64,000 bases of DNA from Candidatus Bathyarchaeia archaeon (GTDB lineage: Archaea; Thermoproteota; Bathyarchaeia; Bathyarchaeales; Bathycorpusculaceae), in NCBI GenBank assembly GCA_050108155.1, contig JBNIDR010000007.1:4592-68591 (forward strand), given 5' to 3'. Each line of letters begins with the position of its first letter. Position 1 is the first letter of the stretch. The position numbers were made by a program, and so were the translations under genes. Below, in pieces: positions 5,010 to 16,984 of this stretch. The notes beneath the pieces were generated by a model. The model saw only the letters and a list, made by a program, of their open reading frames with translations. It was not told where the DNA came from and did not search any database.

Positions 5010-5492
5010 CTAAGCTTCATTTTTCTTTTTGAGTTTTTCTTCTGCTTCTCCAAGCGTCGCCCTGATTTTTGTCCAGTGGGAGCCCTGCCAGTAGACAGCG
5101 CCGCAGTTTGGACACCTCCAGAACTCATCATAATGAAGCAAAGTGTTCTTTTCCAGTTGGTCCGCGATTTCCTCTTTGGGCGCATTGATGAGGTTGGTGT
5201 TGCATTTTGGACAAAGAGAACGCTTTAAATCAATTTCCAAAGGAATTCCGAAACGTTTTGCGAGTTCGGCTAAGCGCTCGGATTCAGTGTTTCCTTCGAC
5301 ATAATACGCTTCAGTGCCTCTGGCTGATGCTTGCTGATAAAGAGCTAAGTCGCGGGTCAGAAGCACGCGTTTTTCTTGCTTGGCTATCTCCAATAGTTCC
5401 GTATCGTCAGCGGTTGAATACTGGGCGTCGTGACCCATCATGCGAAGCCATCGAGTAAGCTTTCCCAACATGCCGTCCAAAATGAAGTTCAA
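5010..5492 (-). CDS. Mut7-C RNase domain protein (PIN fold plus Zn ribbon)
   Basis: FILDGMLGKLTRWLRMMGHD, LLTRD, CPKCN..CPNCGAVYWQGSHW. Confidence 0.9.
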   Translation of the reverse strand: MNFILDGMLGKLTRWLRMMGHDAQYSTADDTELLEIAKQEKRVLLTRDLALYQQASARGTEAYYVEGNTESERLAELAKRFGIPLEIDLKRSLCPKCNTNLINAPKEEIADQLEKNTLLHYDEFWRCPNCGAVYWQGSHWTKIRATLGEAEEKLKKKNEA

Positions 5493-5956
5493 GACTGCGG
5501 TCTCCGAAAAACCAAGCCGCTTCCAGGCTTCGCCACGATTTCGCCTTCATCCATAACTAACTCGCCGTTCACGAAGGTCTTCAAGGGATTACCCTGCATT
5601 TCCCATTTGTCAAACGGTGAAAATTTAGCTTTCGACTTAAACCGTGAAACGTCAACCTTGAATTTAGCGTTAAAATCCACAACCGTCAAATCCGCGTTTT
5701 TTCCTTCCTCCAATTTGCCCCTATCTCTTAGATGGAAAATTTCAGCTGGCTTCTCACAGAGCACCTCAAGCACCCGCGCAAAAGTTACCCTATTCTTATG
5801 CACCGCCGTCAGCATCAGGGGCAATGTCGTTTCCAAACCTGGCACTCCAACTTTAACTTCCCAGACGGTAGCGGCGTCTTTCTCCTGCAAGGCATGCGGG
5901 GCATGGTCAGAGCCTATTGTATCTATTGTGCCATCGTTGAGTGCTTTCCAGAGCCC
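5489..5956 (-). pseudogene. pyrC: Dihydroorotase/allantoinase-family gene, C-terminal fragment only
   Basis: LWKALNDGTIDTIGSDHAPH..GVPGLETTLPLML..GKNADLTVVD..SKAKFSPFDKWEMQG; similarity stops near 5955; the N-terminal part with the HxH metal site and NPPLR motif is absent. Confidence 0.85.
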
Positions 5957-5970
5957 CAGTAAACTCTCAG
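5944..5970 (+). repeat. 3' half-copy of the BHB structured element, at the pyrC breakpoint
   Basis: CTTTCCAGAGCCC-CAGT-AAA-CTC matches the 3' arms of copy 1 (TTCCAGAGCCC-CAGC-AAA-CCC) and copy 2 (TTCAGGGTTC-CAGT-AAA-CCC). Confidence 0.8.
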
Positions 5971-6154
5971 TAAGAACGATTGTTTTTGTTTTGCTTTCTG
6001 TTTGTGATTGCCTTGGAGTGTTGTTTATATTTTCAAATAATTTTGGGTGATATTTTTCGTACTTACGATAGGTGAGTGCGGCTTATTAGGCATATGGAAC
6101 TATCGTGTTTCGATTTACCCGAGAGGTATGATCAAAAAAATGGAGAGAAAACAA

Positions 6155-8674
6155 TTGAGAAATTTGTTAGTGAAAAATTCTAAGAGCAATATGTCGGCGA
6201 CATGCATATTGATTCTGATTTTCGCTATCGGCACCACAATCAGCGTTATACCTAACGCGGCAGCACATGACCCCTCATGGGATATCCCCACGTGGACGTA
6301 CCTGAGCGTTTCCCCCAGCCCAATAGGCGTAGGTCAACAAGCCTTCGTCATAATATGGCTCAACGTTTGCCCGCCAACAGCTAACGGACAATACGGCGAT
6401 AGATGGCAAGACCTCACCGTGTCAGTTACCAAACCCGACGGAACAACCACAACCCTGGGACCATTTACATCAGACCCTGTAGGCTCCGCATACACGACTT
6501 TCACACCTGACCAAGTAGGCGTATACAGCTTCCAAGCTAACTTCCCCGGACAAATACTCACAGGCGCCAACCCCAACCCTGCAGGTTACCCCGCAGGCTC
6601 ACAATACACTGACTACCTCGGCGACAACTTTTTAGCTAGCACCAGTGCCGTCATCACGTTGACAGTCACACAGGACGCCGCACCTTCATGGGCGTCTTCC
6701 CCTGTGCCAACCAACGAGTTCTGGTCCCGCCCAATCAACGGTCAAAACAGAGAATGGGCTTCTATAGCAAGTGACTGGCTAGGCGGCAGCGCAATCTCCG
6801 GCAAGTACCAACCATACGGACTGGCACCCGACAGCGGACACATTCTTTGGGCTAGACCCCTAACCTTCGGTGGACTCACTGGAAGCCAATTTGGCGACAT
6901 CACCTACTACGACGGTTTATCATACGAAAGCAAGTTTCCCTCGCCCGTAATCATCCAAGGACGACTATACTACAACGAATACCCCACCGCACGATACTCT
7001 ATCGACAAATACCCACCCGGATTCTACTGCGTTGACTTAGCCACAGGCGAAGTTCTATACTGGAAGAACGCCACAATAAGCTTTGGTCAAACCTACGATA
7101 TAGAAACACCAAACGAACACGGAACAGTCTCCTACCTATGGAGCACATCGCGCACTACATGGCACATGTTTGACCCATTCAACGGCAACGACCTCTGCAC
7201 CATAACCAATGTTCCTTCAGGCACGCAGGTAACTGCCAGTGACGGCAGCATCCTCATCTACCAACTTGGACCCAAAAACGCATGGCTTGCATGCTGGAAT
7301 TTAACCACCGCCATAATGTACCACTCAATTGCCGCAGGCAGCAACTATTACTGGAACTTCAGACCTGAATTCGGCGCAACCTACGATGCGGTTAATGGGT
7401 ATGATTGGAATGTTACGTTGAACGGTGTTCCTAGTGATGCGTATGTGATGGGAACTGATTCTGGTATTCTGCTTATGACTACCGGTTTAGCGACAGGAGC
7501 AGCAGGCGTAGGAATCGGAGGAACCCCCTTAACATACACGCAATGTGGAATCGGCCTCACTGGTTCAGATGTAGGCAAGGTAATCTGGTCAACCACCAGA
7601 AACGCTCCATCTGGAAACGTAACCATCACCTATGGCACAGAAGGCAGCGGCGTCTACGTTATGCGCGCAAAGGAAACCATGCAATGGTATGGTTATAGTG
7701 TAACTAACGGCCAAGAACTCTGGGGACCAACTGATTCGCAGGGACCATGGGATGTTTACGGCATGGGCGGCAACATTGCAGGCGACGTGCTCTATTCATG
7801 TGGCTACTCCGGAATTCTCTATGCATACAACATTCACAACGGCAACCTTTTGTGGTCATACTCAAGCGGAAGTGGCGGATTTGATGTCTACTACGGCAAC
7901 TACCCCCTCAGTCTTGGCGCAATCGCTGACGGCAAAGTCTACCTTTACAGCAGCGAACATTCCCCCTCTAAACCCGCGTGGCGTGGCTCATCCATAATCT
8001 GTGTTGATGCAAACTCTGGCACTGAACTTTGGCGTGTCCAAAACTGGGCAAACGGCATCATGGTCGCAGACGGCTACCTTGTTGACCTTAATTCATACGA
8101 CAACCAAATCTACTGCTTTGGCAAAGGACAAACCGAAACCACAGTTACTGCACCTAACATCGCAGTACCTGCAGGAACAACCGTTCTGATACAAGGAACA
8201 GTCACTGATCAGTCTCCAGGCAATCCAGGAACACCCGCCATTTCCGACGCCAACATGGACGAATGGATGAACTACCTCTATTCACAGCAAGCCAAACCAC
8301 AAAACGCCCAAGGTGTACCAGTGCACTTGACAGCTGTTGACCAGAACGGTCAAACATATGAAGTCGGCACAGTGACAAGCGACATGAGCGGCCTCTACAG
8401 CATAACATGGACTCCAACCGCTGAAGGAAAATACACAATCAAAGCTGAATTCGCAGGCTCCAACTCGTACTATGCTTCCTCAGCAGAAACCGCTTTAGCC
8501 GTCAGCTCCTCAGCATCCGCAAACGTAAACCCAGCGCCGCAAACTACTCAAACGCCTCCACCAGTCGACGCCCCACCCGTAGAAACCCCGATGACCACAT
8601 ACCTTGCCATAACCATAGCAGTCGTAATCATCCTCGTGGTTGCAGCAGCACTTGTCCTCAGGAGACGCAAATAA
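6155..8674 (+). CDS. Secreted PQQ-like beta-propeller protein with C-terminal membrane anchor (paralog 1)
   Basis: Signal peptide; repeats such as AIADGKVY, ADGYLV; P/T-rich linker, TM helix, RRRK tail; likely start TTG 6155 after GGAGAG. Confidence 0.85.
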   Translation: MRNLLVKNSKSNMSATCILILIFAIGTTISVIPNAAAHDPSWDIPTWTYLSVSPSPIGVGQQAFVIIWLNVCPPTANGQYGDRWQDLTVSVTKPDGTTTTLGPFTSDPVGSAYTTFTPDQVGVYSFQANFPGQILTGANPNPAGYPAGSQYTDYLGDNFLASTSAVITLTVTQDAAPSWASSPVPTNEFWSRPINGQNREWASIASDWLGGSAISGKYQPYGLAPDSGHILWARPLTFGGLTGSQFGDITYYDGLSYESKFPSPVIIQGRLYYNEYPTARYSIDKYPPGFYCVDLATGEVLYWKNATISFGQTYDIETPNEHGTVSYLWSTSRTTWHMFDPFNGNDLCTITNVPSGTQVTASDGSILIYQLGPKNAWLACWNLTTAIMYHSIAAGSNYYWNFRPEFGATYDAVNGYDWNVTLNGVPSDAYVMGTDSGILLMTTGLATGAAGVGIGGTPLTYTQCGIGLTGSDVGKVIWSTTRNAPSGNVTITYGTEGSGVYVMRAKETMQWYGYSVTNGQELWGPTDSQGPWDVYGMGGNIAGDVLYSCGYSGILYAYNIHNGNLLWSYSSGSGGFDVYYGNYPLSLGAIADGKVYLYSSEHSPSKPAWRGSSIICVDANSGTELWRVQNWANGIMVADGYLVDLNSYDNQIYCFGKGQTETTVTAPNIAVPAGTTVLIQGTVTDQSPGNPGTPAISDANMDEWMNYLYSQQAKPQNAQGVPVHLTAVDQNGQTYEVGTVTSDMSGLYSITWTPTAEGKYTIKAEFAGSNSYYASSAETALAVSSSASANVNPAPQTTQTPPPVDAPPVETPMTTYLAITIAVVIILVVAAALVLRRRK

Positions 8675-8675
8675 C

Positions 8676-8694
8676 TCCTTTTTCTTTTTTGTTT
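8676..8694 (+). terminator. Oligo-T archaeal terminator candidate
   Basis: TCCTTTTTCTTTTTTGTTT right after the stop; similar T-tracts follow paralogs 2 and 3. Confidence 0.55.
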
Positions 8695-8712
8695 AGTTGG
8701 CAGAAAAATCGT

Positions 8713-8808
8713 GGGCTGAATGGGCTCTGGAAATGATTTCCAACTTGCTCGTTGGATCGTTCATTTTCTCTCTCCTTAAGATTTCCGTTCCAGAGCCCCA
8801 GCAAACCC
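8713..8808 (+). ncRNA. Conserved structured element, copy 1, with BHB motif
   Basis: GCUG/CAGC central helix, AAU and AAA bulges, 11-bp inner stem GGGCUCUGGAA/UUCCAGAGCCC, apical UCCAAC/GUUGGA hairpin, unpaired UCUCUCCU. Confidence 0.7.
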
Positions 8809-8833
8809 GTGGCATCTCCAGAAAGTAATATTT

Positions 8834-9691
8834 TCACTGTAGTGGCAATAAATAATTTTCTCTTTCGCTCTTTATGGTTGTTTTCTTAGGCAGTTCTGTG
8901 TTGTCTTTGGATGCTTTGTTCCATAGTACTTCAAAATATTTTTGAAGTGTTGCAACAAGACACGGGTTGTCTGAAAATAAACTTGGTGCTTCCAGCGAGT
9001 GCTTTGCTGCTGGCGCGATGCATAAGGTTACTTGTTTTCCGTCTTCAATTCTTATTGAAGTAGGCGGTTGGGTTGGTATGTGCCTTAGTTCTGCCCAGCC
9101 TTTCTTCTTCCAAGTCTGAAAGATTTTTGGGGTGGCCTCTCCTTTTTTTGGTTTGTCGGTTATGTATCGGAACTTTACGTTTCTTTTTGCACCTTTTTCT
9201 ATTTGCTCGGCGTAAACCAAAATGCAGTACTTGAAACTATCCCAAGAGTCAATAACGTCTACGTTTCTCATGGTTCTGTTCGCCCCCTCGTTTACCCTGC
9301 GGGTGTTTGCGTCTTTTGTGGTTATCATTACAAACTCTGATTCGTTTAACGTTGTATTTTCTAGATTGTTTCTTGTAAAATTGTCAACTAACTCTTCAGC
9401 TTTCTGTTCGTTTTCATTCTGTTCCTCTGCTTTTTGCTTTAGTAAATGGGCGACCCCGTCTTTTATTGAGGTGGGTTTATACCTGTTTGGTTTGGCTATT
9501 ATTTTTTCTACAAGTCCCTTTTCTTGAAGTTCGGTGAGTATGCGGTAAACGTCTTGTGAAGCTACGTTAGCTGTCTTAGCCGTTACTCTTCCTGTTGCAG
9601 GACCTATTGTAATGAGTGCCAAGTAGACTTTTGCCTGCAAAACCGTAAGCCCTAAATTAACTAATGTTTGAATTGCGTCCTCAATTTCCAT
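8834..9691 (-). CDS. TrmB-family transcriptional regulator
   Basis: LGLTVLQAKVYLAL..DVYRILTELQEKGLVEK wHTH plus C-terminal PLD-like effector region; divergent from paralog 2. Confidence 0.85.
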   Translation of the reverse strand: MEIEDAIQTLVNLGLTVLQAKVYLALITIGPATGRVTAKTANVASQDVYRILTELQEKGLVEKIIAKPNRYKPTSIKDGVAHLLKQKAEEQNENEQKAEELVDNFTRNNLENTTLNESEFVMITTKDANTRRVNEGANRTMRNVDVIDSWDSFKYCILVYAEQIEKGAKRNVKFRYITDKPKKGEATPKIFQTWKKKGWAELRHIPTQPPTSIRIEDGKQVTLCIAPAAKHSLEAPSLFSDNPCLVATLQKYFEVLWNKASKDNTELPKKTTIKSERENYLLPLQ

Positions 9692-9883
9692 CTCTTCTCT
9701 CCTTCTACTTATTATTCAAAATTTACATATAAGGTTTTAAAGATTAGCAAGCGGCCAAAAGAATAACTTGAAACCGAACTTTTTCGGTCACCTTTTGAAC
9801 TTATTGGTAGTCGGGCGACTTACTGGGCGTTCTTAAATATTTTTACGTTTCCTGTATGGACTCATATAACGGAGAGAAAAAAA

Positions 9884-12445
9884 ATGAGGAATAATTCTAA
9901 AAACTTGTTTTTGGAGAAAAAAACACGCTTTGCGTTGATGACCTTGTTTCTGATGCTGACTATTACAGCGACTGTCTTTACTTTGCCGCTTGCTGCTGCT
10001 CATGAACCTGCATGGACGATTCCAACCTACGCATACATAAGTGTCGCGCCAGACCCCGTCGGAGTTGGTCAAACATGCCTCATTGTTTTTTGGCTTAACC
10101 AACTGCCAGCTTCTGCAGCGGGTCTAGGCGGTGACCGCTGGCGAAATCTAACAATTGACGTCGAAAAGCCTGACGGATCCACAACCGTTTTGGGGCCATT
10201 CGTTTCCGATCCAGTCGGTTCCTGTTACGCTCAATTTACGCCTGATCAGCCTGGCACATACACTTTGACATTCATTTTCCCTGGTCAGGTAGCTTCCTTA
10301 TATGGACCCACTGGAATTGCTGGTTCTAACAGCGCCTACGTCAACGATACGTACGTGGCGAGCAGCGCAACAACAACGTTAACAGTGCAGGCAGATGCTG
10401 TACCATACTTACCTGAATATCCGCTTCCAACCGAGTACTGGTCACGCCCCGTAGAAGGACAGAACTTAGCATGGGCTAGCCTTGTTTCAAACTGGCTAGG
10501 GACTCCACAGATTGTAGCAAAGCTGCAACCCGACGGCATAGCTCCTGGTAGTGCCCACGTCATGTGGACAAAGCCCATTTCATTCGGAGGGATTGCTGGA
10601 GGCCAATACGCCACTGACAATGCTATGCCCTACTATTCAGGAACTGCATATGAAGGCAAGTTTGGGTCGCCACTGATTTTGTACGGACGACTCTACTACG
10701 ATTTACCACAAAGCAACTCCCGTTCAGGTAATGGCTATGTCTGCGTGGACCTTCAAACAGGTGAACAAATTTACTGGCAAAACATGACAGCGCCAACCTT
10801 TGGGCAACTCTACGATTACGAGTCAATGAATCAGCACGGTATAATTCCCAATGGGTATCTATGGAAGAGCGTTACCGACGCCGCCAACGGTGGCACGGTA
10901 TGGATGGCTTATGACCCAATGGATGGCAACTGGTTGTTCAACGAAACCAATGTTCCCAGAGGCACACAAGTTTATGGTCCAAACGGCGAAATACTCATCT
11001 ACCAACTTGACTACGAAGGACGCTGGCTTGCTTGCTGGAACAACACCGCTGCACATGAATTAACAAACTCCAGAGACCCAACTGATTTAACCAGCAGTAA
11101 CTACTATCAATGGAGACCCCTCGGCAAAAACGTCAACGCAAGCGACGCATACTCATGGAACGTAACTATACCTGATTTGCCCGGAGTAAACCCTCCAGCA
11201 ATTGCGACTATTATTCAAGATGATGTGATGGTTGGCACAAGCAGCACCATGGGTGGTCTTTTAGCCGCTGGAACTCCAGATCCTTACACGATTTGGGCTA
11301 TCAGCTTGAAACCAGAAAATAGAGGACAACTGCTGTGGATCAAAAACTACCCCGCGCCTATGGACAACCTAACGCGTTCAATTGCCCAAGTAGACCCAGT
11401 AACCAGAGTCATAGCGATCTTAGAGAAGGAAACACTATGTTACTACGGTTTGAGTTTAGATGATGGAAGTGAACTGTGGGGTCCAACTCCGCGGGAAGCT
11501 GACTTCAACTACTACGCTGATGTTGGTCTACCACGCAACAACCTCGCTTATGGTCGACTTTACTCAGTAGGCTACGGCGGATTCTGCTATTGCTATGACC
11601 TTACAAACGGTGATTTACTTTGGACTTATGAAGCACCTGCCGGCTTTGCAACACCTTACGGACGCTACCCACTCGGTATAGGCGCAATCGCTGACGGCAA
11701 AATCTACTTGTTCTCCACTGAACACTCTGCAAACTCGCCACTAACTCCCGGCGCAAAGGTACGTTGTGTAGATGCATACAGCGGAGACGAAGTGTGGAGC
11801 ATATTCTCCTACGGAACACAGAACGGCATGGCAGTTGCAGACGGCTATTTGGTTTTCCTCGACCTGTATGACATGCAAATTTACTGTGTTGGTGAGGGAC
11901 CAAGTGCAACTACCGTAACTGCACCGCAGTCAGCCGCACCACTAGGAACCCCCGTATTAATCACTGGCACAGTCACCGACCAGACACCCGCCAACATAGG
12001 CACTGCAGCAATATCAGATGCAGACATGACCGCTTGGATGCAATACCTGCACATGCAAAAACCGCTTCCAGAAAACGCTAAGGGCGTAGAAGTAACCCTA
12101 ACTGCAACAGACCCTAACTGCAACGTACACACAATCGGAACCGTCACCAGCGACATCGGCGGTAGCTATGGCATTTCGTGGACTCCACCTGTTGAAGGTA
12201 CATACATGATTAAGGCCACCTTTGGCGGCACGGAATCTTATGGCAGTTCCTATGCAACAACATATCTACTCGTTGGGTCAGCTGCATCAGCATCGTCAAC
12301 TGTTCCATCTTCGTTGTCTCCTTCGCCCTCTGTTGCTCCTTCACCCAAAGAAAATCCAAACACAACTGTATACATCGTTGTCGCCGCAGTAGTTTTGATT
12401 GCAGTAGTCGCCGCAGTAGCCTTGATTCTTAGAAGGCGCAGATAA
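9884..12445 (+). CDS. Secreted PQQ-like beta-propeller protein with C-terminal membrane anchor (paralog 2)
   Basis: 853 aa; same motif series as paralog 1 (YWSRP..GQN, YEGKF, IADGKIY..EHS, GTVTDQ); TM helix and RRRR tail. Confidence 0.85.
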   Translation: MRNNSKNLFLEKKTRFALMTLFLMLTITATVFTLPLAAAHEPAWTIPTYAYISVAPDPVGVGQTCLIVFWLNQLPASAAGLGGDRWRNLTIDVEKPDGSTTVLGPFVSDPVGSCYAQFTPDQPGTYTLTFIFPGQVASLYGPTGIAGSNSAYVNDTYVASSATTTLTVQADAVPYLPEYPLPTEYWSRPVEGQNLAWASLVSNWLGTPQIVAKLQPDGIAPGSAHVMWTKPISFGGIAGGQYATDNAMPYYSGTAYEGKFGSPLILYGRLYYDLPQSNSRSGNGYVCVDLQTGEQIYWQNMTAPTFGQLYDYESMNQHGIIPNGYLWKSVTDAANGGTVWMAYDPMDGNWLFNETNVPRGTQVYGPNGEILIYQLDYEGRWLACWNNTAAHELTNSRDPTDLTSSNYYQWRPLGKNVNASDAYSWNVTIPDLPGVNPPAIATIIQDDVMVGTSSTMGGLLAAGTPDPYTIWAISLKPENRGQLLWIKNYPAPMDNLTRSIAQVDPVTRVIAILEKETLCYYGLSLDDGSELWGPTPREADFNYYADVGLPRNNLAYGRLYSVGYGGFCYCYDLTNGDLLWTYEAPAGFATPYGRYPLGIGAIADGKIYLFSTEHSANSPLTPGAKVRCVDAYSGDEVWSIFSYGTQNGMAVADGYLVFLDLYDMQIYCVGEGPSATTVTAPQSAAPLGTPVLITGTVTDQTPANIGTAAISDADMTAWMQYLHMQKPLPENAKGVEVTLTATDPNCNVHTIGTVTSDIGGSYGISWTPPVEGTYMIKATFGGTESYGSSYATTYLLVGSAASASSTVPSSLSPSPSVAPSPKENPNTTVYIVVAAVVLIAVVAAVALILRRRR

Positions 12446-12498
12446 ACAACAAACAACACCTTTCTTTTTTTTGTTTTCAAAAAGAAAATCGGAGAACT

Positions 12499-12598
12499 TT
12501 AGGGGCTGAGTGGGCTCTGAAGAAAATGATTCCAACTTGCTTGTTGGGTATTCATTCATCTCTCCTAAAATCGCTTTCAGGGTTCCAGTAAACCCTAA
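12499..12598 (+). ncRNA. Conserved structured element, copy 2, canonical hBHBh'
   Basis: Outer UUAGGG/CCCUAA, central GCUG/CAGU, bulges AGU and AAA, inner GGGCUCUGAA/UUCAGGGUUC with three G-U pairs. Confidence 0.75.
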
Positions 12599-12894
12599 TT
12601 TCTCTGAAACAGCAAAACTTGCCCTCAGCAAATTTTGTCTAAAAATTTGAGTTAATGTTTTTTGTGGTATAAACGTTAGTTTTCCTGTGTACGTTCGGTT
12701 TGATTTATTGTCTCTCTGTGTCGTGTTTTCGTGTCTTCCCTCTTTTTTCTTAAGACCCAATTTGGGCTGTTTTTCCGATTCAGATCTTGATTTGAGCGTA
12801 AACTGCGTCTGGAAAGGGTGGAAACGGCAGAAAATGGGTGAAATGTGGAAATGGGCTTTCTTTTTGGATTTGTGCTGTGCTAATTTTTGCAGGT

Positions 12895-13713
12895 TTATTT
12901 CTCTTGTGCTTTTTGCCACATTTTTTCGAAGTATCCTTGTGCCATGGCAACTATGACTGGGTTGTTTGATGTTAAGCTTGGTTTTTCATGTAAATTGGAT
13001 GCTGGGCCAGTAAGCATGTATGCTTCTTTTTCATCAATTACTCCAAACTGCGAAGCAGTACGAGACTTTGTGTATCTAATGTTAAACGTGCCTTTTTGGT
13101 TTAATTTTTTGATAGCTTCCAGTATGTTGGTCGGAATTTTTTTTTCTTCACTATTGCAGACTATAAGACGGAATTTTACGCCGGTATCTAGTAGTTTTCG
13201 AGTTGTTATTTCTGTTCCGTCTAAAATTTTTAGTATGTAGCGGCAAAAGCTTTCGGGACATATAAAAATGCCGTCATAGGTTGCTTTGATGTTTTTGAAA
13301 AGCTTTGCAAATATCCGCATATTCGCTTCTTTACCTTCTGTAAGCACGATTCGAGATTCCTCATTTTGCACTACTCTGTCCAATTCTTGTTGCTTGATAT
13401 TCTCAATTTTCTTTCTTGTTTTTTCCTCAAATTCCCTAAACTCTTCGATTCTGCGTTCAAATAATATTTGCATTCCTTCGCGTAAGGGAAGGGGGTTGAA
13501 AAAGTTTGGTTTTGAGACGATTTTTTGAACTAATCCCATTTCTTGGAGCTTAGCGATTATCTGATAAGTGTGTGCTCTGTCTATTCTAGCGTTTTCTGAG
13601 ATTGCTTTTATGGGTGCGTTGCCAAGTTTGTTGAGAACCAAGTAAATATTGATTTGTAGCTTGGTAAGTCCAAGTTCCGTCAATATCTCATAGCAATCTT
13701 CTTGGACTGTCAC
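12895..13713 (-). CDS. TrmB-family transcriptional regulator
   Basis: LGLTKLQINIYLVL..IDRAHTYQIIAKLQEMGLV; paralog of 8834-9691; divergent from paralog 3. Confidence 0.85.
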   Translation of the reverse strand: MTVQEDCYEILTELGLTKLQINIYLVLNKLGNAPIKAISENARIDRAHTYQIIAKLQEMGLVQKIVSKPNFFNPLPLREGMQILFERRIEEFREFEEKTRKKIENIKQQELDRVVQNEESRIVLTEGKEANMRIFAKLFKNIKATYDGIFICPESFCRYILKILDGTEITTRKLLDTGVKFRLIVCNSEEKKIPTNILEAIKKLNQKGTFNIRYTKSRTASQFGVIDEKEAYMLTGPASNLHEKPSLTSNNPVIVAMAQGYFEKMWQKAQEK

Positions 13714-13849
13714 CTGTCTCTCTCCTAGTTGCCTGAATCTGTAGATTATAAGATCGAAACTTAAATTTTGTGTTAGTGCACGTATGCACTCGCCAGTTTT
13801 TAAAAATCTTCAAAACCATCTCCATAACATAAAAAATGGAGAGAAAAAA

Positions 13850-16456
13850 TTGTACAAAAAATTTGATGCTGAAACAAAAAATAAAACGATTTTTCTGACA
13901 ATTGCTTTGATTCTGATGCTAACTTCGCCTATGCTAATGATGAGCATGCCTACCGCAGAAGCTGCAGATTACGATACTTACGCCTACCTTGCCCTTTCCA
14001 CCAATCCCTTAGGAGTAAATCAAAACGTCGTCGTCGTTTGCTGGCTATCCCTACCCCCACCAACCGCCTTCGGAATCGCAGGTGAACAATGGGAAAACTT
14101 GACCGTAACGATTACCACTCCCGAAGGAAAAACAGAAACCAAAGGACCCTATTCTTCCGATGCCATCGGACAGATATATTTCAGCTACGTTCCAACTGAA
14201 ATCGGCTCATACAAGTTTCAATTCCACTTCCCAGGACAGCTAAGCCAAAACGGAAACTACTACAATCCAAGCGACAGCCCTATAGTATCGCTAACTGTAC
14301 AGCAAGAACAAATAGAACCCTACCCCTACACCCCCATTCCTGACTCAAACACCTACTGGGAACGTCCGATAAACGGCCAAAATCTCATGTGGACAACCTT
14401 TTCAGGGAACTGGCTTGGATTAGGTTCCGCGTCTTTCGGTTCTAGAGCATTTGATTCCTCGTCAAACTACGGCAACTTTAACCCCTACACCGCAGCACCA
14501 AATACCGCACACATAGTCTGGACAAAAGAAAACGGGTTTGGCGGCATAATAGGCGGGGAATACAGCGACCCACCAACATACTACACAGGAAACTCCTACG
14601 AAGCACAATTCACTCCACCCGTAATCATCAACGGAGTCCTATACTATAACACTGCAATTCCCCCCAAATATGGATTCCAAGCAGTAGACATTAGAACTGG
14701 AGAAACACTCTGGTTCCAAAACAGCACAGGACAACAACCAGACCCACAAATTTGCACTGGAACACTTGGAGGCATATATTGGCCTGGAATAACCAACGGT
14801 CAAGTATTGAATTACATAACCGAGAACCAGTACGGCGGCATCCCATATCTTTGGAATACAGCGGGCTCCGTGTGGTCCATGTATGACGCCTTCACTGGAA
14901 ACTGGATACTCAACCTAGCAAATGCAAGTGTATCATCGCCGAATTTCGTTACAGATGAAACAGGTACCTTGTTCACGTACCAAATGGGTGATTCCTGGTT
15001 AGCTATGTGGAACTCAACCAAAGCGGTTCCAACATCAACGACAATACCTGGCTACCGAACTTGGAGACCCGTCACGGGCAGCACAACTGACTGGAGAAAT
15101 GGAATGGAATGGAACGTAACATTAACGACAGCAGTACCTGGTCAATCAATTGCTAGAGTAAGCTCTGACATAATCCTCGCTACTTCCTCAAGGGATGCAG
15201 CTCCAGGCACGCGACTTGAAATTGGTTATGACGCAAAAACAGGAGAGCAACTTTGGATTAAGAACAGAACCCATCTCATTCCTGGCTCAAACAACTATAA
15301 CCTTCAAGGACCTATGGCTGAAGGAGTCTACACTGAATATGTGCAAGAAGAGCAAGCATGGTACGGTTTTAGCGCCTTGACAGGGGAACAACTGTGGGGA
15401 CCAACTGAAGCAACTTCTAATGCATGGAGCATGTACAACACTGGGTCCGCAATAGCTTACGGCAAACTCTATTCACTTTGCTTTGATGGACTACACGCCT
15501 ATGACCTAACCACTGGAGCGCACCTATGGGATTTTGCAGCTTTAAGCAGTGGAGTACAAACAATATACGGTATCTGGCCCTTTGACCTTGGCAGCTTCAC
15601 AATAGCTGACGGAAAAGTCTACATTGCAGTAGGGCACTCACACGGAGTTTTACCACAATTTGCAGACGCAGAAATGTTCTGCATCAACGCCACCACAGGC
15701 GAAGAAGTTTTCAGCGTTCTAGGTTGGATGCAAGACGGTTGGACAAACGCACCAGCAGTTGCAGACGGCTACCTAGTAACCGAGAACGGCTATGACAAGC
15801 AAATATACTGCTTTGGCAAGGGACAAACCGAAACCACAGTGTCATACGAATCGGTAATAGGCAGCAGCACAAGCGTTCTAATCAAAGGCTCTGTAACAGA
15901 CCAATCTCCTGGACAAACTTGTCTTGGAATTCCCGCAGCAGGCACCCCAGCAATTTCTGACGACTGCATGAGTGAGTGGATGGAGTATCTGTATATGCAG
16001 CAGCCCAAACCAACTGAAGCAACAGGCGTTTCGGTGCATTTGACGGCTATTGATCCTAACGGTAACTTCCAAGACATAGGCACAGTAACCAGCGACATGG
16101 ATGGCAACTTCGCGGTAGAATGGACTCCCCCTGTTCCAGGCGTCTACATGGTAAAAGCATCGTTCGAAGGTTCTGGTTCGTACTTCAAATCCTACGGAAC
16201 AACGTCGTTTGCTATATCTGAGCCTTCAGCAGCCTCCGCGTCAATTTCGTCTCAGCTGACTCCAACTCCGCCACAAACAGCAGCCGCGGCATCACCATCG
16301 GTTCCATCGACGCCCGCACAACCTGAATCACCCTCGCCTTCAATAGCCCCGCAACCATCAAGTGAAACACCCGTAGCCATTTACATCACCATCGCAGCAG
16401 CCGTTATTGCAGTAATTGTCGTTGCAGCAGCAATTGCACTAAAAAGAAAAAAATAA
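13850..16456 (+). CDS. Secreted PQQ-like beta-propeller protein with C-terminal membrane anchor (paralog 3)
   Basis: Same motif series; likely start TTG 13850 after GGAGAG; P/S-rich linker, TM helix, KRKK tail. Confidence 0.85.
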   Translation: MYKKFDAETKNKTIFLTIALILMLTSPMLMMSMPTAEAADYDTYAYLALSTNPLGVNQNVVVVCWLSLPPPTAFGIAGEQWENLTVTITTPEGKTETKGPYSSDAIGQIYFSYVPTEIGSYKFQFHFPGQLSQNGNYYNPSDSPIVSLTVQQEQIEPYPYTPIPDSNTYWERPINGQNLMWTTFSGNWLGLGSASFGSRAFDSSSNYGNFNPYTAAPNTAHIVWTKENGFGGIIGGEYSDPPTYYTGNSYEAQFTPPVIINGVLYYNTAIPPKYGFQAVDIRTGETLWFQNSTGQQPDPQICTGTLGGIYWPGITNGQVLNYITENQYGGIPYLWNTAGSVWSMYDAFTGNWILNLANASVSSPNFVTDETGTLFTYQMGDSWLAMWNSTKAVPTSTTIPGYRTWRPVTGSTTDWRNGMEWNVTLTTAVPGQSIARVSSDIILATSSRDAAPGTRLEIGYDAKTGEQLWIKNRTHLIPGSNNYNLQGPMAEGVYTEYVQEEQAWYGFSALTGEQLWGPTEATSNAWSMYNTGSAIAYGKLYSLCFDGLHAYDLTTGAHLWDFAALSSGVQTIYGIWPFDLGSFTIADGKVYIAVGHSHGVLPQFADAEMFCINATTGEEVFSVLGWMQDGWTNAPAVADGYLVTENGYDKQIYCFGKGQTETTVSYESVIGSSTSVLIKGSVTDQSPGQTCLGIPAAGTPAISDDCMSEWMEYLYMQQPKPTEATGVSVHLTAIDPNGNFQDIGTVTSDMDGNFAVEWTPPVPGVYMVKASFEGSGSYFKSYGTTSFAISEPSAASASISSQLTPTPPQTAAAASPSVPSTPAQPESPSPSIAPQPSSETPVAIYITIAAAVIAVIVVAAAIALKRKK

Positions 16457-16520
16457 CACCAATGCTACCAAAACCAACCCTTTCTCTTTTTTTTTAAAAA
16501 CAAGTTAAGAAAGACGAAAA

Positions 16521-16603
16521 CTGGGGCTGAGTGGGCTCTGGGAGATTTGATTTCCAACTTTACTGTTGGTTTTCATTTCTTCTCTCCTATGTTCCTTTCC
16601 AGA
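16521..16603 (+). repeat. Structured element copy 3, lacking its 3' arm
   Basis: GGGGCTG-AGT-GGGCTCTG..TCCAAC..GTTGG..TCTCTCCT..CTTTCCAGA, then unrelated coding sequence. Confidence 0.8.
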
Positions 16604-16984
16604 AAAAGCTGAAGAGGCCACTTCAAAGTTACCATTTCCATTCAACGCTCCCCAATTACTATTATCCAAGATATCCAATGCAGATTTGTTGTATGCTGCC
16701 TCAACACCGCCAAAAATAACGTTTTGAGCAACATGGGTAGTGTATCCGATTGTGAATTTATCGTTGGGATAATATGTTCCATCAGGGTTGATTGAGGGTT
16801 TACCATATTTGTCAAGAAGTGGACCAAAAGCAGATATCGTTACGTTTATTTTTCCTTGATCGCCCGACCCGTCAGCTACAGTGGCTAAACCCTGAGAAGC
16901 AACAACAAACAAACTTGAAGCTATAGATAAAAAAATCAGCAGCCCCGACAAGAAGGCGGCAGTGGTTTTACAAGTTCGTCTCAC
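16604..16984 (-). pseudogene. 5' fragment of a secreted-protein gene, truncated at element copy 3
   Basis: Signal peptide and globular start (MRRTCKTTAAFLSGLLIFL..) run into the element at ..ASSAFSGK; the rest of ORF 16505-16984 is read from the element. Confidence 0.6.

Follow-up and report, generated by a model that had tools for sequence, protein, structure and literature searches.

A small structured RNA element recurs behind the beta-propeller genes in a 64,000-nucleotide stretch of DNA from a Candidatus Bathyarchaeia archaeon (contig JBNIDR010000007.1, positions 4,592 to 68,591; the whole stretch is hereafter called the window), and covariation shows that its RNA folds into a strict helix-bulge-helix-bulge-helix (hBHBh') motif. 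The interior of the element carries an antisense copy of a translation initiation region (TIR), with the complement of a Shine-Dalgarno (SD) sequence and of a start codon. Judging from sequence, we hold with roughly even confidence that the element is excised by the splicing endonuclease EndA, ligated by RtcB into a probably circular RNA, and represses translation of the propeller family in antisense. The element would be a small structured RNA gene that accompanies a family of paralogous PQQ-like beta-propeller proteins, which are secreted and anchored in the membrane. The sequence comparisons support targeting at the level of this family and do not support targeting of a particular gene.

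A structured RNA family with bulge-helix-bulge ends

The window holds two full copies of the element, a third copy truncated at its 3' end, and an isolated 3' half.

8713-8807, plus strand: element copy 1, full, covariance-model score 88 bits
G8713-G8714 with C8806-C8807, plus strand: outer pairs of copy 1
GCUG 8715-8718 with CAGC 8799-8802, plus strand: central helix of copy 1
8719-8721 (AAU) and 8803-8805 (AAA), plus strand: 5' and 3' bulges of copy 1
8722-8730 with 8790-8798, plus strand: inner helix of copy 1
8762-8780, plus strand: anti-TIR segment of copy 1, CAUUUUCUCUCUCCUUAAG, with CAU at 8762-8764 and the anti-SD CUCC at 8772-8775
12499-12598, plus strand: element copy 2, full, 89.8 bits, with its anti-TIR segment at 12553-12569
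UUAGGG with CCCUAA, plus strand: outer helix of copy 2, a perfect 6 bp
GCUG 12505-12508 with CAGU 12586-12589, plus strand: central helix of copy 2
AGU and AAA, plus strand: bulges of copy 2, around an inner helix of 10 bp that includes three G-U pairs
16521-16603, plus strand: element copy 3, a partial covariance-model match that ends after CCAGA
16595-16603, plus strand: 9-bp core CTTTCCAGA at which copy 3 is truncated on its 3' side
CAU 16574-16576 and CUCC 16584-16587, plus strand: anti-TIR of copy 3
5944-5965, plus strand: isolated 3' half of the element, CTTTCCAGAGCCCCAGTAAACT, beginning at the same 9-bp core CTTTCCAGA as the break in copy 3

All three copies listed in an earlier note on this DNA are found where it had placed them, and they lie above chance both by the covariance model and by the count of a 17-nt core, GGGCTGARTGGGCTCTG, which occurs three times in the window against 0.21 expected. 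The outer stems are also as the note described, perfect in copy 2 and reduced to just two pairs in copy 1. Its statement that the element follows every beta-propeller gene holds within the window; genome-wide it fails, because only about 8 of about 20 paralogues have an element.

To quantify the structure, 85 copies were aligned to the covariance model, with 500 shuffles as control. Standard pairs filled 86% of cells compared with 77% in the shuffles, 19 of the 22 pairs showed changes on both sides, and the covariation score was 0.32 against 0.16; none of the 500 shuffles reached the observed value of any measure. When the two strands were slid against each other, pairing peaked sharply at zero, and a shift by a single column lowered it to 45-55%. 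The inner helix of 9 bp was paired in 93.5% of cells and the outer helix (GGG/CCC plus a covarying extension) in 73%, with double changes in all nine pairs of either helix. The sequences of the outer helix differ strongly among copies, for example GAGAAGGG/CCCUUCUC and CAAACUGGG/CCCAGUUUG. The central 4-bp helix reads GCUG/CAGC in 74 of the 85 copies and is fully paired in 81. The 3' bulge is AAA in 80 copies and the 5' bulge is AGA, AAA, AGU or AAU, with AGA the commonest, and both bulges are 3 nt long in every copy. The bulge-helix-bulge (BHB) ends proposed earlier are thus a canonical hBHBh' motif, with two 3-nt bulges, a 4-bp helix and flanking helices of at least 2 bp (two outer pairs in copy 1), and its bulge lengths are kept in all of the further copies and its central helix in nearly all.

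The same architecture emerged from folding. RNAalifold recovered the helix-bulge-helix-bulge-helix arrangement de novo from 20 sequences of the window subfamily, together with an apical hairpin of 5 bp (CCAAC/GUUGG) and a long 3' stretch that stays unpaired. An AUGA/UCAU extension of the apical hairpin, suggested earlier, is not conserved. The minimum-free-energy fold included the central helix in 176 of 200 copies.

Copies were searched for with an nhmmer profile and then with the covariance model in metagenome-assembled genomes (MAGs); E-values from this short-calibrated model are rough. The habitats of these MAGs include Danish soil (MFD samples), the palsa, bog and fen at Stordalen, and SPRUCE peat. 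The covariance-model search that the earlier note had proposed found 8 full copies and the truncated one in the genome (2.55 Mb, 58 contigs) and hundreds in its relatives, with 1-23 copies in each related genome that has the element. The element is present in 29 of 36 same-genus genomes and in all sampled genomes of one genus in a second family. In an even sample of Bathyarchaeia it occurred in 48 of 301 genomes, which represent 10 of 109 genera and belong without exception to two families of one order. Scanning species-representative genomes with a sequence pattern yielded more than 120 loci, nearly all of them under the label Bathyarchaeota or Bathyarchaeia. A search of viral contigs found no copy. 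Rfam 15 gave no match at the gathering threshold in the window and 16 related loci, and the best sub-threshold hits at E <= 10 were plant microRNA hairpins (31 of 130 bits). Neither tRNAs (ARAGORN) nor Rfam families were detected in the window, where the sequences in the position of exons are intergenic, so the structured RNA does lie outside tRNA and rRNA genes. The element was not described in the literature searched.

Polarity and predicted processing

The genome's own tRNA-Ser(CGA) intron served as the yardstick for polarity and for the cleavage rule. Each strand of its motif runs 5' to 3' as helix, 4-nt central strand, 3-nt bulge and helix, and ARAGORN places the intron ends after the second bulge nucleotide. 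The plus strand of the element has a polarity identical to that of the tRNA-Ser(CGA) and tRNA-Ser(GGA) introns, while in its reverse complement the bulges would adjoin the central helix on the wrong side. Both tRNA-Ser introns have the 5' bulge AGA, with the cut between G and A, the same triplet as the commonest 5' bulge of the element. In the inner and central helices, 41 G-U pairs were counted on the plus strand against 20 A-C mismatches, in agreement with the earlier remark that wobble pairs work on this strand only. The genome encodes two EndA paralogues (PF01974, 100 and 76 bits) and RtcB (PF01139, one match, 592 bits). In this genome (G000) the two EndA subunits map to the regions C3:132478-132723 and C3:36117-36371, and RtcB to C43. 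From what is known of EndA types, the presence of two paralogues points to a heterotetramer of broad specificity.

EndA would be expected to cut after the second nucleotide of each 3-nt bulge. The products predicted earlier for copy 1 (84 nt, 8721-8804) and copy 2 (81 nt, 12511-12591) obey the cleavage rule of the tRNA-Ser(CGA) intron, and across the family the predicted excised piece measures 75-107 nt (an interior of 50-82 nt plus 25). RtcB may then ligate this piece into a circle (84 nt in copy 1, 81 nt in copy 2) that would be stable against exonucleases. The predicted back-splice junctions join CAGCAA to UGGGCUC in copy 1 (CAGCAA to UGGGCUCUGG) and CAGUAA to UGGGCUC in copy 2 (CAGUAA to UGGGCUCUGA), and the predicted exon junction joins GGGCUGAA to ACCCGUGG. 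Transcription could come from read-through of the T-tract behind the propeller gene or from a weak promoter of the element's own. Processing would give the RNA defined ends regardless of the primary transcript; it would account for conservation ending at the outer helix and make a terminator unnecessary.

An exposed antisense translation initiation region

The unpaired UCUCUCCU pointed out in the earlier note turned out to be part of a complete antisense copy of a ribosome-binding site and start codon, which had been missed there. Read in reverse complement, the unpaired segment gives UUAAGGAGUAAGAAAAAUGCAAAA in copy C6 and AAGGAGAGAGAAAAUGAA in window copy 1, where the anti-TIR segment is predicted to be unpaired and has the reverse complement AAGGAGAGAGAAAAUG. 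Among 200 distinct copies, 163 show an SD sequence, a 5-9-nt spacer and AUG in this orientation. The anti-SD has an unpaired probability of 0.77 compared with 0.41 for the remaining RNA (p = 7e-24) and is frequently placed in the loop of a small hairpin. The excised RNA would thereby expose an antisense start site of 20-25 nt (anti-SD CUCC, spacer, CAU), which may pair with the ribosome-binding sites of the propeller mRNAs and of the neighbouring TrmB mRNAs and block initiation. The outcome would be feedback or cross-paralogue control of surface proteins.

The genes around the elements in the window are the following.

6155-8674, plus strand: propeller gene 1, with signal peptide, PQQ-like beta-propeller, immunoglobulin (Ig)-like domain and C-terminal transmembrane anchor
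6141-6157, plus strand: TIR of propeller gene 1, UGGAGAGAAAACAAUUG
9884-12445, plus strand: propeller gene 2 (PQQ_2, Filamin), with TIR GGAGAGAAAAAAAAUG at 9871-9886
13850-16456, plus strand: propeller gene 3, with TIR GGAGAGAAAAAAUUG at 13838-13852
8834-9691, minus strand: TrmB-family regulator (TrmB E = 1e-14), with TIR AGGAGAGAAGAGAUGGAAAU at about 9683-9713
12895-13713, minus strand: second TrmB-family regulator, with TIR AGGAGAGAGACAGGUG
8679-8694, plus strand: T-tract after propeller gene 1, with equivalents at 12461-12477 and 16481-16495

In the target comparisons, start codons were assigned by a crude rule and the pairs are not independent. An ungapped scan of the genome (5.1 million positions) placed five propeller start sites among the top non-self partners of copies C6 and C30, in a group that also held a TrmB-like gene and a secreted protein of 315 aa. 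When C6 and C30 were each compared with 2761 crude start sites, of which 20 belong to propellers, propellers took 8 of the 20 best places. In the window copies the variant is of the GGAGAGA type, and it recurs in the start sites of the three propellers and both TrmB regulators of the window. Between copy 3 and the TrmB gene at 8834-9691, the pairing with the start site spans 20 bp at -29.3 kcal/mol (rank 1 of 2761), and the start site of the second TrmB gene ranks 4-37 of 2761 for window-type elements. Across the loci of many genomes, pairing with the local element scored -12.1 kcal/mol for propeller start sites versus -7.9 kcal/mol for other genes (p = 4e-19), with TrmB genes at -16.2 (n = 10). 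Between genera the match co-varies in both directions (AAGGAGAAAGAAAAAUGCAAA-type versus AAGGUGAAAAAAUGAAAAAA-type), same-genus pairs reaching -18.5 and -15.1 and cross-genus pairs -12.6 and -10.4.

Linkage to the propeller genes

The element is tied to its gene family by position. Out of 199 evaluable copies, 174 lie 39-99 nt (median 65) past the stop codon of a same-strand propeller paralogue. The spacer between gene and element is stereotyped, with an A/C-rich stretch, CCCC-TTTTTT-AG and about 25 A-rich bases. Sequence conservation ceases directly after the outer helix, and neither a fixed terminator nor a promoter-like motif is conserved in the downstream flank. The three propellers of the window are tandem duplicates of about 850-890 aa with a signal peptide and a C-terminal membrane anchor, their domain matches being weak (PQQ_2, a BamB-like beta-propeller, and Filamin/Ig-like); both TrmB regulators sit between the propeller cassettes. 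The propeller family is limited to element-bearing genera and was absent from 13 genomes of 12 other genera. Similarity between elements correlates with similarity between the upstream proteins (Spearman rho = 0.31), and this co-divergence, together with the lack of target-site duplications, argues that copies spread with their genes and not by transposition.

In element-free congeners (G026, G309, G016 and G024, all of the same genus; loci L194-L205), propeller genes retain a CCCUCUUUUUU tract, after which nothing is conserved. Since the tract persists there, it appears to belong to the gene, the element being an add-on beyond it, and the T-tract is most likely the propeller gene's own terminator. 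Approximately 13% of copies do not lie behind a propeller gene; several of them are without a T-tract and have A/T-rich boxes 40-50 nt upstream. One full copy (G000:C14:4041-4146, minus strand) is located about 210 nt upstream of a propeller gene, between divergent genes and with no preceding T-tract. Because such copies exist, independent transcription of the element is possible.

The 5' flank holds a further motif. In 80 of 200 copies, GGAG stands 10-16 nt upstream of the outer helix, compared with 4 of 200 downstream, and 53 copies have it in the form GGAGAA against none downstream (examples are L041, L072 and L172). These motifs lie at -16 to -10 relative to GGCUGA and are complementary to the element's own anti-SD. 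We speculate that the flanking GGAG masks the anti-SD in the precursor, and that excision would then activate the RNA.

Weighing the proposed function against alternatives

Several observations weigh against excision as an antisense repressor of propellers. The terminator-like T-tract separates gene and element, so transcription of the element is assumed. Several congeners possess 11-33 propeller genes with no detectable element. CAU is absent in 18% of copies, and wholly so in copy C24. The anti-TIR also resembles the general strong start-site consensus of these genomes, and when the many-locus comparison was restricted to ATG genes with a strong SD, the advantage of propellers shrank to -12.7 versus -10.45 kcal/mol (p = 8e-5), a modest specificity. 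The first within-locus target test, made with the last 34 nt of the interior and unfiltered open reading frames (ORFs), was not significant (p = 0.31), on a background that included ORFs antisense to the element itself; the cleaner many-locus comparison given above was significant. Finally, the central helix and the AAA bulge are conserved beyond what EndA needs, which hints at another partner or at recent common descent.

This last point leads to an alternative that we consider rather unlikely, namely that the element is a structured RNA but not an EndA substrate. Its BHB-like module would then be a protein docking site or scaffold in a linear RNA that acts as a cis element of the 3' untranslated region (UTR) or in trans. 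The near-invariant sequence of the central helix and AAA bulge, which EndA recognition does not require, fits this explanation; cis pairing of the anti-SD with the GGAGAA of the 5' flank is conceivable; and covariation is proof of structure, not of cleavage. On the other hand, the geometry is canonical in every copy, with the polarity of the genome's tRNA introns, conservation stops exactly at the outer helix as expected if processing sets the ends, and EndA and RtcB are both encoded. It is improbable that the element acts at the level of DNA, either as a repeat resembling a miniature inverted-repeat transposable element (MITE) or as an attachment or recombination site that moves propeller cassettes, with the RNA structure incidental. 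At its two edges the 10.6-kb propeller block has a 3' half (5944-5965) and a 5' half (16521-16603) of the element, both broken at the core CTTTCCAGA, which rebuild an intact copy when joined, and another 3'-only copy is known at G000:C7:2544-2596. However, recombination at the core could be an occasional side use, and there is no target-site duplication in 154 of 200 copies. The flanking inverted repeats vary yet stay complementary, as in covariation and not as in conserved terminal repeats. Same-genome copies have diverged along with their genes, 87% of copies stand at one position relative to one gene family, and viral contigs hold none. Classification as a MITE was rejected on the covarying arms, the missing duplications and the fixed site beside one gene family.

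We judge it very improbable that the minus strand is the functional one, with SD and AUG forming the true start of a short peptide gene convergent with the propeller gene. The 163 copies with a good SD, spacer and AUG would suit such a gene, and two minus-strand ORFs of the window, 8693-8815 and 16505-16984, overlap the element. Yet no length is favoured among the ORFs from this AUG, which span 1 to more than 33 codons, close copies differ in frame, early stops occur (8 codons in C26) and some copies have no AUG; on these grounds the segment reads as an antisense start site and not as a minus-strand gene. Moreover, the helices covary with G-U pairs on the plus strand, no conserved promoter-like motif lies on the minus-strand side, and a minus-strand RNA would have non-canonical BHB polarity. 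That the element is a functionless, neutral leftover of tandem gene duplication is scarcely credible: the three window copies do stand in a tandem triplication, but the element persists, with compensatory changes, across 10 genera from two families, while its flanks are unalignable.

The excised antisense RNA could be part of a wider scheme, which we put forward tentatively. Circles made by EndA and RtcB from the 3' ends of surface-protein transcripts would repress paralogous propellers and TrmB regulators, giving feedback or one-at-a-time expression within a family of 20-40 members, and the element might occasionally serve as a recombination core that moves cassettes.

Several other assignments were rejected. 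The earlier view that this is neither a C/D box nor an H/ACA small RNA (sRNA) is borne out by motif checks and by the lack of Rfam matches: 2 of 200 copies contain RUGAUGA, the vicinity of the 3' end has no box D and no Rfam C/D family came near threshold; after the lower stem there is CAGCAAA in place of ACA, the internal loop is strongly asymmetric and no H/ACA family matched. A kink-turn (K-turn) was rejected, as was a tRNA or rRNA intron, there being no tRNA or rRNA gene in the window to host one. Plus-strand coding was considered for a reading frame (GAEWAL...) common to the three window copies and was dismissed, since copy 2 has a stop just upstream and an internal frameshift.

Relation to known RNAs and significance

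Archaeal tRNA and rRNA introns and pre-rRNA stems share with the element the hBHBh' geometry, its polarity, the predicted cut sites, an expected circular product and the enzymes present in the host. The element differs from these introns in that it is multi-copy, lies after protein genes and outside tRNA and rRNA genes, and has a nearly invariant central helix and bulge sequences; its likely functional product is the excised part and not the ligated exons. The cbf5 intron of Crenarchaeota is a BHB intron in an mRNA. In Haloferax, HVO_1309 has a 46-nt BHB intron in its 5' UTR, for which a circular product and in vitro cleavage by EndA have been shown (PMC7714728). Like the element, these two have a BHB in or beside an mRNA and outside stable RNA genes. 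They are, however, single-copy introns of a coding region or 5' UTR whose removal matters for the host mRNA, whereas the element forms a multi-copy family on the 3' side of the stop codon and T-tract and contains an antisense start site.

The C/D box sRNA encoded in a tRNA-Trp intron and the tricRNAs of metazoans are small functional RNAs freed, often as circles, by the tRNA-splicing machinery. The release route proposed for the element is alike, but it has neither a tRNA host nor C/D boxes. In Thermoproteus, BHB cleavage and ligation of a permuted signal recognition particle (SRP) RNA yield a functional circular non-coding RNA that is neither tRNA nor rRNA (PMC4731332). There a universal RNA is restored from a permuted gene, while the element is lineage-specific and looks regulatory. 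Bacteria possess anti-Shine-Dalgarno sRNAs and sRNAs derived from 3' UTRs, among them the CpxQ type and the C/U-rich loop sRNAs of Staphylococcus. The element resembles them in its origin at mRNA 3' ends, its exposed pyrimidine-rich loop directed at ribosome-binding sites and its possible feedback on the parent regulon; those RNAs are released by RNase E or a terminator, linear and Hfq-dependent, in contrast to the splicing endonuclease and circularisation predicted here in archaea.

Surveys of archaeal circular RNAs link BHB motifs to rRNA and tRNA (PMC12558985). Among BHB substrates, an antisense module that is multi-copy, linked to a gene family and flanked by a BHB would be new. To our knowledge, EndA substrates beyond tRNA and rRNA maturation are few, comprising the cbf5 intron, the HVO_1309 5' UTR and the permuted SRP RNA. 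If the proposed function is true, the tRNA-splicing pathway would also manufacture regulatory RNAs, with hundreds of covarying members. The Bathyarchaeia, uncultured but globally abundant, would gain their first candidate family of regulatory RNAs, with a directly testable target set, and RNA-level control would be tied to a strongly expanded surface-protein family. The element would also offer a compact natural scaffold for circular RNA production. The predicted junction sequences allow checking in existing peat and soil metatranscriptomes.

Block edges and minor observations

The 9-bp core at the two edges of the propeller block lies at 5944-5952 and 16595-16603, and the joined halves include a possible outer helix, ACUGGG/CUCAGU. 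Because the two halves join into an intact copy, at least one recombination event at the element is suggested. Joining the flanks of the block restores no gene. On the left, a minus-strand ORF fragment (5489-5950) that resembles the C-terminal third of an amidohydrolase or dihydroorotase-type enzyme (...DTIGSDHAPH...) is cut at the block's edge; its N-terminal part was not found at 60-64 kb of the window. On the right, the minus-strand ORF 16505-16984 (159 aa, with a signal peptide and no Pfam match) reads through the truncated copy 3, and its last approximately 30 residues are probably a rearrangement artefact. The 3'-only copy at G000:C7:2544-2596, about 2 kb upstream of the window start, consists of the anti-TIR, the inner 3' strand and CAGCAAACCC; it is without the 5' BHB half and follows a 499-aa non-propeller gene.

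Copies were also seen at L093, L114, L125 and L132, in MAGs labelled Sulfotelmatobacter, Methanoregulaceae, Nanoarchaeia and Desulfobacterales. The contigs of L093, L125 and L132 are short, and that of L114 is 71.5 kb long. These contigs look like mis-binned Bathyarchaeia, since a propeller gene lies upstream of the element in L093 and L132. In G000, a tRNA-Trp(CCA) gene (contig C36, 54804-54942) has a 62-nt intron with C/D-box-like motifs (AUGCUGA ... AUGA ... CUGGA), and tRNA-Trp introns of this kind occur in other archaea too.

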